Positions 2,864-51,268 of a stretch of 64,000 nucleotides of DNA are shown here, one piece after another; the stretch's first letter is position 1, and each line of letters opens with the position of its first letter. The notes under the pieces were generated by a model. It searched no databases. It saw only the letters and a program-made list of their open reading frames with translations, and was not told the origin of the DNA. The position numbers were made by a program, and so were the translations under genes. Origin of the DNA: an uncultured Bacteroidales bacterium (GTDB taxonomy: Bacteria > Bacteroidota > Bacteroidia > Bacteroidales > UBA932); contig CALUPG010000002.1 in the NCBI GenBank assembly GCA_944322565.1, forward strand, positions 208,522 through 272,521, read 5' to 3'.

Positions 2864-5800
2864 TCAAGCAAGTTTTTTCAATGCATTGTATGCGCTGACT
2901 ACCGAAGGAATATTTCTGACCACAAGGCGCAATCTGTTGTCAGGCTGCTTGAGTTCAAATATCCTTGAATTTCTGTTCACGGCATCAAGCACATCTGAAA
3001 ATTTCCTTGACCTGTAATATTTTGAAAGTGGATTCATGATAAAGAAAGCTATCATTATACCGTTCTTTATTATGATTTTCTCAAAGCCCAGTCTCTCTCC
3101 AAGATTCCTTATCTTCACTATATCGAAGAGTCTGGATGTCTCTTCCGGCATCCTTCCGAACCTGTCTTCCATTCTCTGCCTCATCCTTTCTATTTCCCTG
3201 TCGTCAGAAATAGAATCAAGTTCTTTGTATATCCTTATCTTTTCAGAGGATACATTGATGTAACTGTCCGGAATCAATGCCTCGAGGTCAGTGTCTACCA
3301 TACAGTCAGATACGTATGTGTCAGCCTTTGAGGAAGCGGCAATTCCCGTCTCCACGCCAAGTTCTTCCATGGCTTCCGACAATATCTTCTGATATGTCTC
3401 GAGCCCCATGTCTGATATGAACCCGCTCTGTTCGGCGCCGAGCAAATTGCCGGCTCCCCTTATGTCGAGGTCCTGCATGGCTATGTTGAATCCGCTTCCG
3501 AGATCGGAGAATGCTTCTATTGCCTTGAGCCTCCGTCTGGCATCATCTGTCATTGAAGTCATCGGAGGTACGACAAGATAGCAGAATGCCTTCTTGTTGG
3601 AGCGTCCCACTCTTCCCCTGAGCTGATGAAGGTCACTCAGCCCTATGTTCTGGGCCTGATTGATGATGATGGTATTGGCATTCGGTATGTCAAGACCGTT
3701 CTCGATGATTGTAGTGCACAGCAGAAGGTCATAGTCACCGGCCATAAAGTCAAGAATCTTGTTTTCAAGTATCTTTGGTTCCATCTGACCATGAGCCACA
3801 CATATCTTCATGTCGGGTATCATCCTGTGCAGGATATCAGCTATCGACTGAAGTTCCTCCACCCTGTTATGGACGAAGAATACCTGCCCTCCCCTGTTGA
3901 GTTCATAATTTATGATGCCCTTTATCTCATCGTTGTCAAAAAGCATTATTTCCGTCTGCACAGGTATCCTGTTCGGAGGAGGAGTATTTATTATGGAAAG
4001 ATCGCGGGCTCCGAGAAGGGAGAACTGCAGCGTCCTCGGTATCGGTGTGGCCGTAAGTGTAAGCGTGTCGACGGAAAGCTTCATCTGTTTCAACTTTTCC
4101 TTCGCACTTACTCCGAATTTCTGTTCTTCGTCTATTATCAGAAGACCCAGGTCCTTGAATTCAAATCCTTTTCCGAGGAGCTTGTGTGTTCCTATCACTA
4201 TGTCAAGTGTGCCTTTTCTGAGTCTTTCCTGAATCTCAGATATTTCCTTGGATGTCCTCAGGCGGCTTACATAGTCTATAGAACAGGGAAAATCCTTCAG
4301 TCTTCCTGAAAATGTATTGAAGTGCTGCAGTGCCAATATAGTTGTGGGGACAAGTACAGCCACCTGCTTGCTGTCAGCCACTGCCTTGAATGCAGCCCTT
4401 ACTGCAACTTCTGTTTTCCCGAAGCCTACATCACCGCATACAAGCCTGTCCATGGGACAATCATCCTCCATGTCATGTTTCACTGCCTTCACAGCCTTTT
4501 CCTGATCAGGTGTATCCTCATACATGAACGAAGACTCAAGCTCCTCCTGAAGATATGAGTCAGGAGAGAAAGCAAAGCCTTTGGCAGCCTTTCTCTTGGC
4601 ATAGAGCTGAATGAGTTCCTTGGCTATGTCCTTGACTTTTGACTTGGTGCTGCTTTTGAGATTCTGCCAGGTCTTAGAGCCGAGTTTGTTGATTTTTGGA
4701 GGTTCGGAATCCCTTGACTTATATCTTGATATCTTGTGCAGGGCATGTACAGACACAAAGACCGTATCATTGTCCTTATATGATATCTTCACCACTTCAT
4801 GCACCCTTCCCTTGTCATCCTTCATCTTTACGAGACCTCCGAAAATTCCTATACCATAGTCTATATGGACCACATAGTCTCCTATATTGAATGCCGTCAG
4901 GTCATTGATGGTGAGCTGTTCGCTCTTCTCGACAGTTCTTCTGATGCTTACTCTGTGGAATCTGTCGAAAATCTCATGGTCAGAATAACAGCATATCCTG
5001 TCCTCATTGTCAATGAAGCCGCTGTGAATATTTCTTCCTGAACGGAATTCCGGCAAAAGTCCGCTGCTCTGGGACAGGATGGAACGCAGGCGCTCAAGCT
5101 GCGATTCCTTCTCCCCGAAGATATACACCTTATATCCGGATTCCATTTTATCCCTTATATCTGCGGCAAGCAAGTCAAAATTCTTATTGAACGAAGGCTG
5201 AGGGGCAATATTGAATTTTATCACATCCTTGTCACGCACAGATACAGGGGTATCAGTGAAGACATGCCGGAAAGAAAGCAGTGAATCGAAGAAAGGCCGG
5301 TCTCTGTACATGTCTGAGGAATCCAGCCATACCGTACTTCCTTCGGGAAGCCTTTCTCCTATAAGTGACTCAGCATTGCCGTCAGCAGATGTGAAATCCG
5401 GAAAAATCTCAGCTTCATCAGCTTTAGCGACTGACAGCTGGGTATTGCAGTCAAAGACATTGATACTTTCTATCTCATCACCGAAAAATCCTATCCTGTA
5501 AGGATTGTTGTACGAATATGAGAATATGTCTATGATTCCGCCCCTTACCGCAAACTGTCCCGGAGAAGAGACAAAGTCCACCCTCTCGAATCCTTTTGAA
5601 AAAAGAGATTCTATGATGGCATCATGATTGATTTCTTCCCCTGTTTTCAGTCTCAACACTTCCGCACCGATTTTCCGGGCATCGGGAATACCTTCTTCAA
5701 GAGCCTGGGGATATGACACTATTACAAGCAGGTCATCCCCCGAATATTCGGCTATCCTGCCTATTGCCGCAGTTCTCTGGACCCTTAGGGAAGATCTGTA

Positions 5801-19690: not shown

Positions 19691-19828
19691 ACGCACGGAT
19701 TGCATGAAAATTCATCATATTCCTTCTGCGACTTTGGAAGAATATTCTTAATTTTGCAGGTTGTGGCCGATAATGGGACTGCTGTTCAGTTCCATGGCAA
19801 AAATTATTTTTATAAAACAGATGCTATC

Positions 19829-21370
19829 ATGACTCAGGATGAACTTTTCAAGGCTCTCGTGGCACATTGCAAGGAATACGGATTCATTTTTCCTTCCAGC
19901 GAGATTTATGACGGTCTTGCAGCCGTATATGATTACGGTCAGATGGGAGTGGAACTTAAGAACAATATCAAGAGATACTGGTGGGAAGCCATGGTCAGGC
20001 TTCATGAGAATATTGTAGGAATAGATTCCTGTATATTCATGCATCCTAAGATTTGGGAGGCGTCCGGACATGTAGGGGCATTCAATGACCCTCTCATTGA
20101 CAACAAGGATTCGAAAAAGAGATATCGTGCAGACGTCCTTATTGAGGATTATATTGCCAAACTTGAGGAGAAGATAAAGAAAGAGGTCGAGAAGGGCCGC
20201 AAGAAATTCGGAGACGGCTTTGATGAGGCGAAGTTCCTTGATACCAACCCTAATGTATTGAGAAACAAGTCCAGGATAGAAGAAGTACGTAAGCGTATGG
20301 CAGATGCCCTCAATGCCAATAACCTTGCCGAACTCCGCCAGATAATCATCGACTGCGAGATTGTGTGTCCGATATCAGGGACAAAGAACTGGACTGACGT
20401 GCGTCAGTTCAACCTGATGTTCAGCACCCAGCTCGGAAACACTTCTGATGATACCAATGTCATCTATCTCCGTCCTGAGACTGCTCAGGGTATTTTCGTC
20501 AATTACCTTAATGTGCAGAAGACCGGGCGCATGAAGATTCCTTTCGGAATAGCACAGATAGGAAAGGCTTTCAGAAACGAGATTGTAGCCCGTCAGTTCA
20601 TCTTCAGGATGAGGGAGTTCGAGCAGATGGAAATGCAGTTCTTCATCAAGCCGGGCACTGAGCTTGACTGGTTCAGGACATGGAAGCAGAACCGTCTCGC
20701 ATGGCACGAGGCTCTTGGTATGGGAAATGAAAACTACCGCTTCCACGACCATGAGAAGCTTGCACACTATGCAAATGCCGCCACAGACATTGAGTTTAAC
20801 TTCCCGTTCGGCTTCAAGGAGCTGGAGGGTATTCATTCAAGGACTGACTTTGACCTCGGAAATCATCAGAAGTTCTCCGGAAAGAAGATCCAGTACTTTG
20901 ACTCTGAAAGCGGAGAAAGCTATACTCCATACGTCATCGAGACCTCAATCGGAGTGGACAGGATGGTGCTTGCTGTTCTCTCCAATTCATTTAAAGAAGA
21001 GACTTTGGAGAATGGCGAGACCCGTACTGTGCTGAGCATTCCGGCCCCGCTTGCCCCGGTGAAGGTCGCCGTGCTTCCTCTCATCAAGAAAGACATGCTT
21101 CCAGAGCTTGCCCAGACCATCATGGATGAACTGAAATATGACTTCAATTGCCAGTATGACGAGAAGGACAGCATCGGCAAGAGGTACCGCCGTCAGGATG
21201 CCATCGGCACGCCGTTCTGCGTCACGGTTGACCACGACTCTCTCAACGACCATTGCGTGACAGTGCGCGACCGTGATACCATGACCCAGGAGAGAGTGAA
21301 GATTGAGGAGCTGCACAAGCTCATCAATGACCGTGTGAGCATGACTTCACTTCTGAAGAAACTGAAATAG
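19829..21370 (+). CDS. glyQS: Glycine--tRNA ligase (alpha2 type)
   Basis: SSEIYDG, YDYG, LRPETAQG, FRNEI, REFEQME, KRYRRQDAIGTPFC. Start MTQDELF at 19829. Confidence 0.97.
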   Translation: MTQDELFKALVAHCKEYGFIFPSSEIYDGLAAVYDYGQMGVELKNNIKRYWWEAMVRLHENIVGIDSCIFMHPKIWEASGHVGAFNDPLIDNKDSKKRYRADVLIEDYIAKLEEKIKKEVEKGRKKFGDGFDEAKFLDTNPNVLRNKSRIEEVRKRMADALNANNLAELRQIIIDCEIVCPISGTKNWTDVRQFNLMFSTQLGNTSDDTNVIYLRPETAQGIFVNYLNVQKTGRMKIPFGIAQIGKAFRNEIVARQFIFRMREFEQMEMQFFIKPGTELDWFRTWKQNRLAWHEALGMGNENYRFHDHEKLAHYANAATDIEFNFPFGFKELEGIHSRTDFDLGNHQKFSGKKIQYFDSESGESYTPYVIETSIGVDRMVLAVLSNSFKEETLENGETRTVLSIPAPLAPVKVAVLPLIKKDMLPELAQTIMDELKYDFNCQYDEKDSIGKRYRRQDAIGTPFCVTVDHDSLNDHCVTVRDRDTMTQERVKIEELHKLINDRVSMTSLLKKLK

Positions 21371-21390: not shown

Positions 21391-21427
21391 GAGGGCGTGT
21401 CAAAAGCAAGACACGCCCTCTCTTTTT
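21391..21427 (+). terminator. Intrinsic terminator after glyQS
   Basis: GAGGGCGTGTC/GACACGCCCTC 11-bp stem followed by TCTTTTT. Confidence 0.8.
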
Positions 21428-21437
21428 AGTTTCTGTT

Positions 21438-21584
21438 ACGGCCGGTGGACATGTAAAATGGCCTCCGACGGCCGTGATTTTCCGGCAAAAGTGTGGCCGT
21501 TGGTATTTTGAAAATGCCGTCGGGCGCGAAAACCATGCAAAACCGCGGCCGGTGGACAGCATTTTGGGTCTCCACCGGGCGCGC
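21438..21584. repeat. Composite triple-hairpin intergenic repeat, copy 1
   Basis: Collinear with 41106-41253, about 80% identical by hand alignment. Hairpins CGGCCGGTGGA...TCC(G/A)(A/C)CGG. Confidence 0.85.
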
Positions 21585-40960: not shown

Positions 40961-41048
40961 GGTGAGATGGGTGAGTGGCTGAAACCAGCAGTTTGCTAAA
41001 CTGCCGTACGGGATTACCGTACCGGGGGTTCGAATCCCCCTCTCACCG
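40961..41048 (+). tRNA. tRNA-Ser (GCT)
   Basis: Acceptor stem GGTGAGA/TCTCACC, anticodon arm GCAGT-TTGCTAA-ACTGC, long variable arm, and T arm GGGGG-TTCGAAT-CCCCC. Confidence 0.97.
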
Positions 41049-41056
41049 CAAAGGAC

Positions 41057-41100
41057 AAGAGGTGTAAGAAATTAAAAATCAATTTCTTACACCTCTTTTT
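41057..41100 (+). terminator. Terminator after tRNA-Ser
   Basis: Perfect 17-bp inverted repeat AAGAGGTGTAAGAAATT/AATTTCTTACACCTCTT ending in a T run. Confidence 0.75.
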
Positions 41101-41105
41101 GTGGC

Positions 41106-41253
41106 CGCGGCCGGTGGATATATAAAACAGTGTCCGACGGCCGCGATTTTCCCGCGAAAGTGTGGCCGATGGCATTTTCAAAATGCCGACGGGCGCGAAA
41201 ACCCCGCAAAAGCGCGGCCGTTGGACAGCAAAAATGCCTCCCACCGGCCGCGC
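41106..41253. repeat. Composite triple-hairpin intergenic repeat, copy 2
   Basis: Collinear with 21438-21584. Ends CGCGGCCGGTGG...CCACCGGCCGCG. Confidence 0.85.
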
Positions 41254-41297
41254 ACAAGAATGACCTTGCGACATAAAATATGTGCCGAAAATTTGGT

Positions 41298-41370
41298 TCA
41301 GTCTTCGTCAGTTCTCATTAGTCCTCATTAGTTCTTATCAGTTCTCGTCAGTCCTCATCAGTCCTCGTCA
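41298..41370. repeat. 10-bp tandem repeat, ~7.3 units (T(C/T)AGT(C/T)CTC(A/G) consensus)
   Basis: tcagtcttcg tcagttctca ttagtcctca ttagttctta tcagttctcg tcagtcctca tcagtcctcg tca. Confidence 0.9.
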
Positions 41371-42605
41371 ATAGTCTGTTCCGGTTCCCATATCCGGTCC
41401 ATGATGTCTCTGGCAATTGTGTTGCCTTCTTCAGTGGCAGTCATCAGTATATCGTACCAGCGTTCGGTGTCATCCATGAATTCAGCCGGGTCATTGTTCT
41501 TGGCGGCGTTCTCTATCCAGTCCCAAGCTTCCTCCTGGTCCGGGGCAAGGCATCCTTTGTCGATGCCTTCCAGAAGAATGTGCCTGAAGTGGCTTATGCG
41601 GACGATTTGGCCGGTGCTCCAGTTGTTGGATGCATCAAGCAGGGCTTTGAGCGGATACAGGTCTGTCCTGCCGTTTTTATATATGAGTTCGTCCAGCATA
41701 TCGAGCACTTTTTGTTCGGCTTTGGTAGTGTCTGCTTTTCTCGGGTCCATGGCTTTGTGCAAATCCATGATTTTGTTCAACAGTCTTATGGTTCTTGCGT
41801 AAAGCGGGATTTCCCGATATTCGAATCGCATACGCATTTCATCCACACTCAAATACGGATTGTCGAGCAGGATATTCTGGGTAGTGACGGTGTTGCCCAA
41901 CGGTATCTCATATTCGTGCGAGCACCATTGTACTCTGACTTTGTCCTCTGAGGCCTCAAGTATTTCGAAGGCTGAATCAGGGAAGTGCGGAACTTCAAAC
42001 CGGGATCCTTTCCTGAGGTCCTTCTCAGGAATATCCATGTCTCCATATTCGGTGTTGCTGACGGACATGTCCATGGTGCGCTCCGTAGCCCGGACCCTCA
42101 ATTCTTTTCCCGGATCACCTTTTGTCTCGTCAATTGTGCAGGGACTTTCCTGGTCTTTTGTGTCCTTTGTCGCGTTTGACCTCTTTGTCTCTTCTGACTC
42201 TTTTGTGTCATTTGGCTCCGGGGCGGCAGATTCTCTGTTTCCGCCTTTTGCCATTTCTGCGAGGCGGCAGATGTCCGGAATGCAATCATGTATCCTGATA
42301 ATGGCATTGTCCATCTCCGCGTAGCACATCGGGTCTTCCGCAGGTCCTTTTACTGATGTCCTCAGGCGTTCCAGAATGTCTTCCAGGAGAGGTTCGTCAG
42401 AGAGCCCTGCAGAGGCTGCGAATCTGTTCAGTTCCACCATAATTGTGAGGGTATTGAAGAAAAATCCCTCAGGGTCAGCCATTCGTGCTTCAAGATGCTT
42501 TATTTCATAGAATACTGTCGCCAGATTGGGGTCATCAGTGCTTAAATAGTGTTTGCCGATGACATAATTGTATTGTGCGGTCGGGATGTAGTTGTTGTCG
42601 TCCAT
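41358..42605 (-). CDS. Hypothetical protein (acidic, low-complexity linker, helical C-terminus)
   Basis: 415-aa ORF starting 4 nt after the fucosidase stop. No family recognised. Confidence 0.7.
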   Translation of the reverse strand: MDDNNYIPTAQYNYVIGKHYLSTDDPNLATVFYEIKHLEARMADPEGFFFNTLTIMVELNRFAASAGLSDEPLLEDILERLRTSVKGPAEDPMCYAEMDNAIIRIHDCIPDICRLAEMAKGGNRESAAPEPNDTKESEETKRSNATKDTKDQESPCTIDETKGDPGKELRVRATERTMDMSVSNTEYGDMDIPEKDLRKGSRFEVPHFPDSAFEILEASEDKVRVQWCSHEYEIPLGNTVTTQNILLDNPYLSVDEMRMRFEYREIPLYARTIRLLNKIMDLHKAMDPRKADTTKAEQKVLDMLDELIYKNGRTDLYPLKALLDASNNWSTGQIVRISHFRHILLEGIDKGCLAPDQEEAWDWIENAAKNNDPAEFMDDTERWYDILMTATEEGNTIARDIMDRIWEPEQTIDED

Positions 42606-51127: not shown

Positions 51128-51195
51128 ACAGTACGGGGCACGCCGTCAATATCACTGTGGCCTGAGTTTTTAAACAATCATCAGGATTTATATAC

Positions 51196-51232
51196 CGCGG
51201 CCGGTGGAGAGTTTGGGGCTCCACCGGCCGCG
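51196..51232. repeat. Single-hairpin member of the intergenic repeat family
   Basis: CGCGGCCGGTGGAG / CTCCACCGGCCGCG, a perfect 14-bp inverted repeat between the convergent clpB and M16 genes. Confidence 0.8.
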
Positions 51233-51268
51233 ATTTTATAGTATTTTCACACCCGATGGTGTTTTCTG

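Follow-up and report, generated by a model that had tools for sequence, protein, structure and literature searches.

The window analysed here, a stretch of 64,000 nucleotides (C2:208522-272521) of the genome G000 of an uncultured Bacteroidales bacterium (2.18 Mb, 19 contigs), contains two full-length copies and one partial copy of a palindromic element that was identified at 60 loci in this genome. The element probably represents a lineage-specific, BIME-like REP family, i.e. a non-autonomous DNA element handled by the single RAYT-like HUH/Y1 transposase of G000. The transposase gene is bracketed by copies of the element, and the locus can therefore be regarded as a REPtron. An earlier note on this DNA had proposed a REP/BIME-analogous family spread by HUH (RAYT) transposases, a proposal that is supported by the copy number of the element, the Y1/HUH gene that it flanks, and the presence of both filled and empty sites among related species. 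The relatives most often referred to below are G314 (Candidatus Cryptobacteroides gallistercoris, JADIMJ01) and G417 (CASEBV01, an uncultured Bacteroidales bin).

Element copies in the window

The following features were identified in the window.

21391-21427, plus strand: intrinsic-terminator-like hairpin and T-run of the upstream gene (ORF 19700-21370), outside the repeat (sequence, ORF list)
21438-21584, plus strand: copy 1, full-length triple-hairpin element (sequence; nhmmer, 160.9 bits)
21438-21475, 21493-21527, and 21544-21583, plus strand: outer hairpin H1, central hairpin H2, and outer hairpin H3 of copy 1, respectively (sequence)
40961-41099, plus strand: tRNA gene (40961-41048; Rfam tRNA, 57.8 bits) and terminator-like hairpin (41056-41099; sequence), directly upstream of copy 2
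41106-41253, plus strand: copy 2, full-length triple-hairpin element (sequence; nhmmer, 144.4 bits)
41106-41145, 41161-41197, and 41213-41252, plus strand: H1, H2, and H3 of copy 2, respectively (sequence)
51189-51266, minus strand: partial third copy, consisting of one outer hairpin, a linker, and one half of the central hairpin in decayed form (repeat pair, sequence, nhmmer)

Copies 1 and 2 can be aligned without gaps at 81% identity over 147 nt (21438-21584 and 41107-41253, offset 19669 nt), close to the 80% given in the earlier note, and a core of 123 nt (21439-21561 and 41108-41230) is 86% identical. The interval assigned previously to copy 1 stands, and that of copy 2 (41106-41253) is one base off, the gapless partner of copy 1 being 41107-41253. 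The opening CGGCCGGTGGA that had been ascribed to all outer hairpins is found in both of copy 1 and in the first of copy 2, but the second of copy 2 opens with CGGCCGTTGGA. The central hairpins, GGTATTTTGAAAATGCC in copy 1 and GGCATTTTCAAAATGCC in copy 2, are of the type described. In copy 1, the hairpins are separated by the conserved linkers GATTTTCCGGCAAAAGTG and GAAAACCATGCAAAACC. Compared with copy 1, copy 2 has its H3 loop and H2 interior in inverted orientation, and the unit is followed by a 3' extension of ~45 nt (CACAAGAATGACCTTGCGAC...) common to a sub-family. A stem mismatch had been reported to change on both sides, from T.T to A.A; this change was seen, but it is not compensatory, as a mismatch remains a mismatch, and it fits a flip of the H2 interior. 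The third of the three sites claimed for the window is a single outer hairpin, complete at 51196-51232 (CGCGGCCGGTGGA...TCCACCGGCCGCG), with a remnant, on the strand opposite to the other two; it covers positions 78-158 of the nhmmer model with a score of 41.6 bits.

Both full-length copies begin no more than 10 nt past a terminator-like hairpin and T-run and are located between convergent units, as had been described. The terminator at 21391-21427 is kept in G417 and G314, whatever state copy 1 is in. Downstream of copy 2, a minus-strand gene has 9-nt tandem repeats at its end (GTCCTCATC-like; window 41298-41385), which encode an acidic D/E-rich tail. This run of repeats is found in G000 and G314 and not in G417, where the gene stops right after the tRNA terminator. 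A segment of 945 nt that includes the tRNA, copy 2, and the beginning of the next gene (window 40961-41905) has 99.4% identity to G314:C41:54649-55593, and the adjoining stretches are 88-94% identical between the two genomes, suggesting a recent exchange between the G000 and G314 species.

Copy number and genomic placement

A profile built from 23 BLAST seeds was used to search the G000 contigs with nhmmer, and 60 loci were identified, including 43 full-length copies. The copy-number check that had been recommended, BLAST followed here by a profile search, thus places the family genome-wide and not just in the window. A regular expression for the hairpin matched 119 hairpins in G000 and 0-2 in each of five shuffled genomes. 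The real copy number is higher than 60, as copies are found at the termini of several contigs (C1, C5, and C16 at their ends, C12 at its start).

All 60 loci are extragenic. With crude ORF picks serving as gene calls, 46 loci could be classified by context: 17 (37%, compared with a genome baseline of 16%) are located in convergent gaps and 8 in divergent gaps, and the copies in tandem gaps have the same direction as transcription in 11 cases and the opposite direction in 10. General targeting next to terminators was considered and rejected, as the flanks of 43 copies do not support it.

The dispersed copies share a mean pairwise identity of 74%, and many of them reside at orthologous positions in three species that are ~93% identical in nucleotides. 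Most dispersed copies are thus old, and the population has been inherited mostly vertically. The degree of identity and the orthologous positions together indicate that current activity is low, and no evidence of recent bursts was found among the dispersed copies.

When Rfam 15 was searched at gathering and permissive thresholds, only the tRNA in the window reached its gathering score; the best match overlapping the element was mir-957, with 14.5 bits against a gathering score of 66. Phage and plasmid collections contained no match to the element consensus, and the suggested check for an already described Rfam or IS-end family likewise returned none.

Short tandem repeats border several dispersed copies (C4:9272, C2:194046, and C16:6410). 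A second, unrelated palindromic repeat of ~110 nt (AGGGACATGAGGGTATTGATGG...CCATCAATACCCTCATGTCCCT) is located in G417:C6 just past the copy 1 orthologue, where it is inserted relative to G314. Similar sequences adjoin two element copies of G000 (C16 near 6300 and C3 near 145950), and this repeat is probably another MITE-like family.

Anatomy and folding of the unit

The unit is composed of six arms of ~13 nt, CGCG[G/C]CCG[G/A/T]TGGA and its complement, in alternating orientation, and its outermost arms are inverted repeats. Arms 1-2 and 5-6 form the outer hairpins H1 and H3, respectively, with a 14-nt loop each, and arms 3-4 run on into GGCATTTT-N-AAAATGCC, giving the central hairpin H2 with the motif GGCATTTTNAAAATGCC. 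Two linkers, ATTTTCCCGCAAAAG and AAAA(N)CCCGCAAAAC, are kept across the family, and the element therefore has the alternating units and conserved linkers by which BIMEs are recognized. Sub-families carry extra modules, namely an upstream hairpin (ATCAACGGAAAATCCATGTTGAT) and a downstream tail (CTGCAGAATGACCGTGCCGACAAGACTCTTCC). The terminal loops are 44% identical across the family and the remainder 81%, in keeping with the earlier observation that differences are concentrated in the loops. No T-run follows the hairpins of the element.

Folded as DNA, copy 1 forms three hairpins (-37.9 kcal/mol, z = -3.2); folded as RNA, its minimum-energy structure is a single long rod (-71 kcal/mol, z = -3.8). 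Both models were tested on 22 distinct copies from three species. In the three-hairpin model, 90.6% of the cells are paired, compared with 34-50% when the partners are slid. The long, REPIN-like rod was rejected, with only 48% pairing in the loops and 44% in the linkers across the family, and two inverted REPs pairing into one long hairpin, as in a REPIN, are thus not what the element contains. Covariation in the three-hairpin model does not exceed that of shuffled data, as 84 of 500 shuffles of the 22 copies reach the observed score. At the G/C switch position of H1, the two arms showed a modest association (35 observed and 24 expected), which the cross-species set did not reproduce. The palindromy is real and is maintained as conserved sequence, and compensatory change is not demonstrable.

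The outer loops of H1 and H3 occur in all four combinations of orientation (A/T in 15 copies, A/A in 10, T/A in 7, and T/T in 4). The mismatch in H2 tracks the tip base, as T.T accompanies a G tip in 9 of 9 copies and A.A a C tip in 12 of 18, a pattern that fits inversion of the hairpin interior. Flips of loops and interiors are typical of recombination or template switching between inverted arms, and their independent occurrence implies that the palindromes probably act as DNA. The GTGG sequence of H1 and H3 is located inside the paired stem beside the loop, with no unpaired 5' GT[AG]G foot there. In H2, it lies ahead of the well-paired part in most copies, in a stretch where column 63-91 is unpaired in 20 of 22 copies and the neighbouring pairs are mostly T.G wobbles.

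Candidate partner transposase

The only Y1_Tnp match in G000 is encoded at C1:308661-309620 on the minus strand (Pfam Y1_Tnp, 29.5 bits; cut-off 23). REP_Tyr_transpos (NF047646) is the best NCBIfam match of the protein, ahead of transpos_IS200, with a score of 31.6 bits that does not reach the threshold of this RAYT model (80). Among 53 homologues, N58, H59, and H61 (NHLH) are invariant, and in the YVLRNP motif N122 is invariant and Y118 nearly so. The AlphaFold model (pLDDT 79) has an N-terminal domain built of strands and helices that a disordered linker (147-180) joins to a C-terminal domain of helices. Its best fold match in PDB is 4ER8, E. coli TnpA-REP with a REP hairpin (E 5e-5, TM 0.64, rmsd 2.8 Å, 139 columns), followed by the IS608 and ISDra2 transposases. 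Because a sequence search of PDB with the protein yielded no match, the relationship to TnpA-REP is visible by fold alone. The protein thus combines an HUH motif and a catalytic Tyr with a predicted Y1 (IS200-like) fold. It is ~300 aa long and includes a C-terminal domain of ~170 residues that is absent from classical RAYTs; for this domain, a Pfam scan of 53 family members yielded only one weak HTH_38 match. The copy number of the gene is low: one in G000, and an orthologue plus one paralogue at 63%/48% identity in G417.

In G000, the gene is flanked by one copy at C1:308506-308660, abutting the stop codon, and another at C1:309970-310122, ~350 nt upstream of the start, beyond which further copies are found toward the end of contig C1. 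The two flanking copies are whole triple hairpins that point the same way, and the gene-proximal copies form a tight sub-family (95-98% identical). In the recurring layout, an element is followed after ~250 nt by the gene, and a second element adjoins the stop codon, both elements being on the opposite strand to the gene. In G417, element copies adjoin an orthologue 90% identical to the G000 gene, and three metagenome contigs (L077, L078, and L079), one of which starts and ends within the element, carry orthologues at 83-85% with elements on the flanks. G226 shows the arrangement in part: at the start of one contig, a fragment encoding the C-terminal part of the protein precedes an element. 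The search for a TnpA-Y1/RAYT gene flanked by the hairpin, which the earlier note had recommended, was thus successful in G000, G417, and the three metagenome contigs. No transposase gene other than the HUH gene was found between neighbouring element copies. The close orthologues in the protein collection are on contigs of 1.0-1.4 kb, in keeping with a gene bracketed by assembly-breaking repeats.

Tandem repeats border each gene-proximal copy in G000 (C1:308400-311100), those ahead of it being of 17-23 nt (GGCGAGGCATTTCGTAAAGCGAA-like) and those past it of 24-28 nt (GCAGATGAAAAGATGC...). The gene-proximal copies and tandem repeats of this region are located as follows.

L026 (G000 C1:308400-311100): 1237-1305, 2660-2784, 2953-3009, 3042-3127, 3317-3393, 3508-3637, and 3825-3933

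Weak, diverged matches to the element were also found in G417:C23 (L047 1768-2134), upstream of the 63%-identical transposase paralogue; a diverged cognate repeat of its own may accompany this second RAYT-like gene.

Orthologous sites in related species

The cross-species comparison covered 15 sites (12 + 3), with the following states.

Copy 1 site: triple hairpin in G000; intact in G417; one hairpin between identical flanks in G314
Copy 2 site: filled in G000 and G314; empty in G226 and in G417, the latter with the downstream gene directly after the terminator
Twelve further sites: filled in G000; mostly filled in both relatives, the gap being 146-147 nt there as well
C5:9219: three hairpins in G000; two in G314
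C6:29027: four hairpins in G000; one in G314
C16:12118-12385: segment of 268 nt in G000; missing from G417, G314, and G226

The proposed comparison of filled and empty sites therefore revealed polymorphism, the copy 2 site being empty in G417 and the C16 insertion being found only in G000. This insertion consists of a triple-hairpin core with 63 and 59 nt of flanking sequence, and the joined flanks of the site are contiguous in G417 and G314. The 63- and 59-nt sequences have no match elsewhere in G000 or in four relatives, and unique flanks of ~60 nt would not be predicted if the 147-nt unit had simply transposed. No target-site duplication is present at either of the two readable junction pairs, the C16 insertion and the copy 2 empty site. 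The number of hairpins at orthologous sites varies from 1 to 4 (1 vs 3, 2 vs 3, and 1 vs 4).

At three sites, the relatives carry 1.1-4.5 kb more DNA beside the element than G000. Both sister species contain ~4.5 kb (G417:C6:149225-153805 and G314:C41:76081-80572) that is absent from G000; this DNA separates copy 1 (window ~21600, 15 nt after the copy) from the gene downstream of it. Comparable extra DNA in the relatives, 1.1 and 1.7 kb long, adjoins the elements at C1:243277 and C5:73712 of G000. Indels seem to be concentrated next to the repeats.

Genes for AAA-type ATPases with a GxxGxGKT P-loop were observed to alternate with the repeat. At the site in G130 orthologous to window 51196-51232 (G130:C20:8700-11700, L063), two identical single hairpins bracket a 1.2-kb ATPase gene, and G000 has one hairpin at this site. 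A 403-aa relative is found in G417 and G314 where G000 has the triple hairpin at C1:243277 (L071, G417:C16). We take these ATPases to resemble the DUF4143 family.

Distribution across Cryptobacteroides and relatives

The element was found in 4 of 401 sampled Cryptobacteroides species (G000, G314, G226, and G130) and, via a pattern search, in G417. The broad protein family is present in 314 of the 401 species, often with several paralogues, and among the 400 other sampled genomes no orthologue more than 39% identical to the G000 protein was detected. A clean co-occurrence of gene and repeat across the genus was therefore rejected, the broad family being nearly ubiquitous. Only the close orthologue tracks the repeat, with the exception of G314: both G417 and G314 have at least 40 matches to the element, but no orthologue is detectable in G314, the assembly of which is 89% complete and consists of 130 contigs. 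G314 is thus the chief gap in the argument from co-occurrence.

Homologues in other species are flanked by repeats of their own, 85-170 nt in length. When these were searched in their own genomes, they were found only around the gene in five of seven species, and G175 and G330 showed modest dispersal. A gene with a flanking structure is general in the genus, and genome-wide spread is the exception, seen in the G000 clade.

Comparison with known systems

The element resembles E. coli REP/BIME and TnpA-REP in being made of short GC-rich extragenic palindromes with alternating orientation and conserved linkers, in the enrichment of copies at gene 3' ends, and in the presence, as in the E. coli REPtron, of a single HUH/Y1 gene that is flanked by its own repeats and whose product is closest in fold to TnpA-REP (4ER8). 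It has, however, no sequence similarity to the E. coli elements, and its outer hairpins lack the unpaired GTAG foot. Unlike E. coli BIMEs, it is mostly a fixed three-hairpin unit with a distinct AT-tipped central hairpin, and the ~300-aa protein differs from E. coli TnpA-REP in its extra C-terminal helical domain and its score below the NCBIfam RAYT cut-off. With the REPIN-RAYT systems of Pseudomonas (Bertels and Rainey; PMC3116915), the element has in common that the RAYT gene is present in a single copy and is outnumbered by non-autonomous repeats, that inheritance is mostly vertical, that sister species share orthologous positions, and that the diversity resembles that of an old population. 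A Pseudomonas REPIN, however, is formed by two inverted REPs in one long hairpin, whereas the rod pairing of the present element is poor (loops 48%, linkers 44%) and its outer hairpins occur in all four relative loop orientations.

In general terms, this kind of system is already known in Bacteroidetes (PMC6006769). The statement in the earlier note that the family is not one recognized in this phylum holds in so far as no Rfam or IS-end family is matched, but REP-like structures have been reported there (PMC6006769). [quoted passage not shown] 2018, PMC6006769). The present system shares the phylum and the NH[LIV]H motif with these subclasses, flanking structures without GTAG and dispersed copies with subclass 2.6, and with subclass 2.1 a long protein with a C-terminal helical extension. 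Its Y motif is YVLRNP, compared with YIH[QN]NP in subclass 2.6 and YIELNP or Y[IV]HLNP in subclass 2.1, and its length of ~300 aa compares with a median of 179 in subclass 2.6 (PMC6006769). Particular to the system described here are the fixed three-hairpin BIME-like unit, outer hairpins without the canonical GTAG foot, a ~300-aa enzyme with an extra C-terminal domain, and the spread of the flanking structure in one clade, as opposed to many related species without spread.

Proposed mechanism and alternative explanations

As in a REPtron, the gene is flanked by cognate repeats, and these are dispersed in many extragenic copies; against this assignment stand the 31.6 bits of the protein with REP_Tyr_transpos (cut-off 80), its extra C-terminal domain, and the lack of a GT[AG]G foot in the outer hairpins. 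The element would be a non-autonomous DNA element that is recognized as folded single-stranded DNA, and it would be cut and rejoined by the RAYT-like HUH/Y1 tyrosine transposase encoded at C1:308661-309620. The step from 'flanked by' to 'mobilised by' is one that we infer by analogy with the REP-RAYT systems of E. coli and Pseudomonas (PMC6006769, PMC3116915, PMC3733652), in line with which the transposase may move or maintain the repeats. As with IS608 and TnpA-REP, the replication fork may supply the single-stranded DNA through which movement proceeds, and the expansion and contraction between one and four hairpins may be caused by slippage or recombination between direct copies of the arms.

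The closest alternative, an IS200/IS605-like element with PATE-like derivatives, differs from this reading in degree. The gene and its two flanks would then be an autonomous IS200/IS605-like IS, and its ends, alone or fused, would make up the dispersed units of 150 nt (PATE/MITE). PATEs and MITEs of IS200/IS605 are likewise hairpin-ended non-coding derivatives that need a Y1 transposase, and the absence of target duplications is as expected for IS200/IS605. The fold of the protein also matches the IS608 and ISDra2 transposases, and the confinement of flanking repeats to the gene in five of the seven species tested looks more like an insertion sequence than a REP system. However, known PATEs and MITEs are derived from the distinct ends of a multi-copy IS, whereas the gene is single-copy in G000 and both of its flanking elements are entire, equally oriented triple hairpins instead of distinct left and right ends. 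In addition, non-coding units outnumber the gene by ~60 to 1 and many are common to orthologous positions across species, and the best structural match is TnpA-REP and not an IS transposase. A single gene, whole-unit flanks, the ~60:1 excess, and orthologous sharing are signatures of REP/RAYT systems, and the IS reading is accordingly considered unlikely.

It is still less probable that the element primarily works as a structured RNA or as a module at transcript ends whose fold is under selection, for example as a small RNA, a terminator, or a stabiliser of mRNA 3' ends. The location of both full-length window copies just past terminators and between convergent units, the enrichment in convergent gaps, and the stable RNA fold (-71 kcal/mol, z = -3.8) are consistent with such a role, and E. 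coli REP elements do show secondary effects of this type (PMC3733652). An RNA function is, however, difficult to reconcile with the lack of strand bias relative to transcription (11 to 10 in tandem gaps, with 8 copies in divergent gaps), with covariation that 84 of 500 shuffles match, or with the free inversion of loops and hairpin interiors. Moreover, the number of hairpins varies at orthologous sites, no T-run is found past the hairpins, and there is no Rfam match. The structured RNA that the earlier note had offered as an alternative is thus disfavoured, in particular by the covariation and the strand distribution.

Finally, the outermost arms are inverted repeats, and recombination between copies is evident from the hairpin-number changes and neighbouring indels, but a MITE of a DDE transposon (with the 13-nt arms as terminal inverted repeats), or a recombination or gene-conversion repeat that is near the HUH gene by coincidence, is very improbable in view of the absence of target-site duplications at the C16 insertion and the copy 2 empty site, the HUH gene as the only transposase between neighbouring copies, and the element-gene-element layout in at least five independent sequences, so that the MITE alternative of the earlier note is poorly supported in its DDE form.

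Implications

To our knowledge, REP/RAYT systems have been studied almost entirely in Proteobacteria. The REP-like family described here is a well-delimited system in an abundant uncultured genus of gut Bacteroidales. If its protein is TIRYT-like, i.e. similar to subclass 2.1, the conclusion that this group has no REPs would need revising, and such proteins would have dispersed cognate repeats. The repeats also break short-read assemblies, with several contig ends of G000 located within them and the transposase gene typically found on contigs of ~1.2 kb, and this gene is therefore easily lost from metagenome-assembled genomes.

The hairpin-bracketed genes, such as the DUF4143-type ATPase gene of G130, hint that the repeats mediate the gain and loss of gene cassettes. 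It is tentatively possible, though we would not presume it, that the RAYT-like clade with the long C-terminal helical domain, which is found in ~78% of the Cryptobacteroides species sampled, mostly with several paralogues that each have private repeats on their flanks, captures the birth of a REP population: flanking structures stay at the gene in most species, and 60-100 dispersed copies are found in one small clade. The sister species provide filled, empty, one-hairpin, and four-hairpin states of the sites for comparison, and hundreds of related species possess a gene of this kind whose repeats have not become dispersed. Taken together, they constitute a natural series for studying how an IS-like HUH element gives rise to a genome-wide repeat population.
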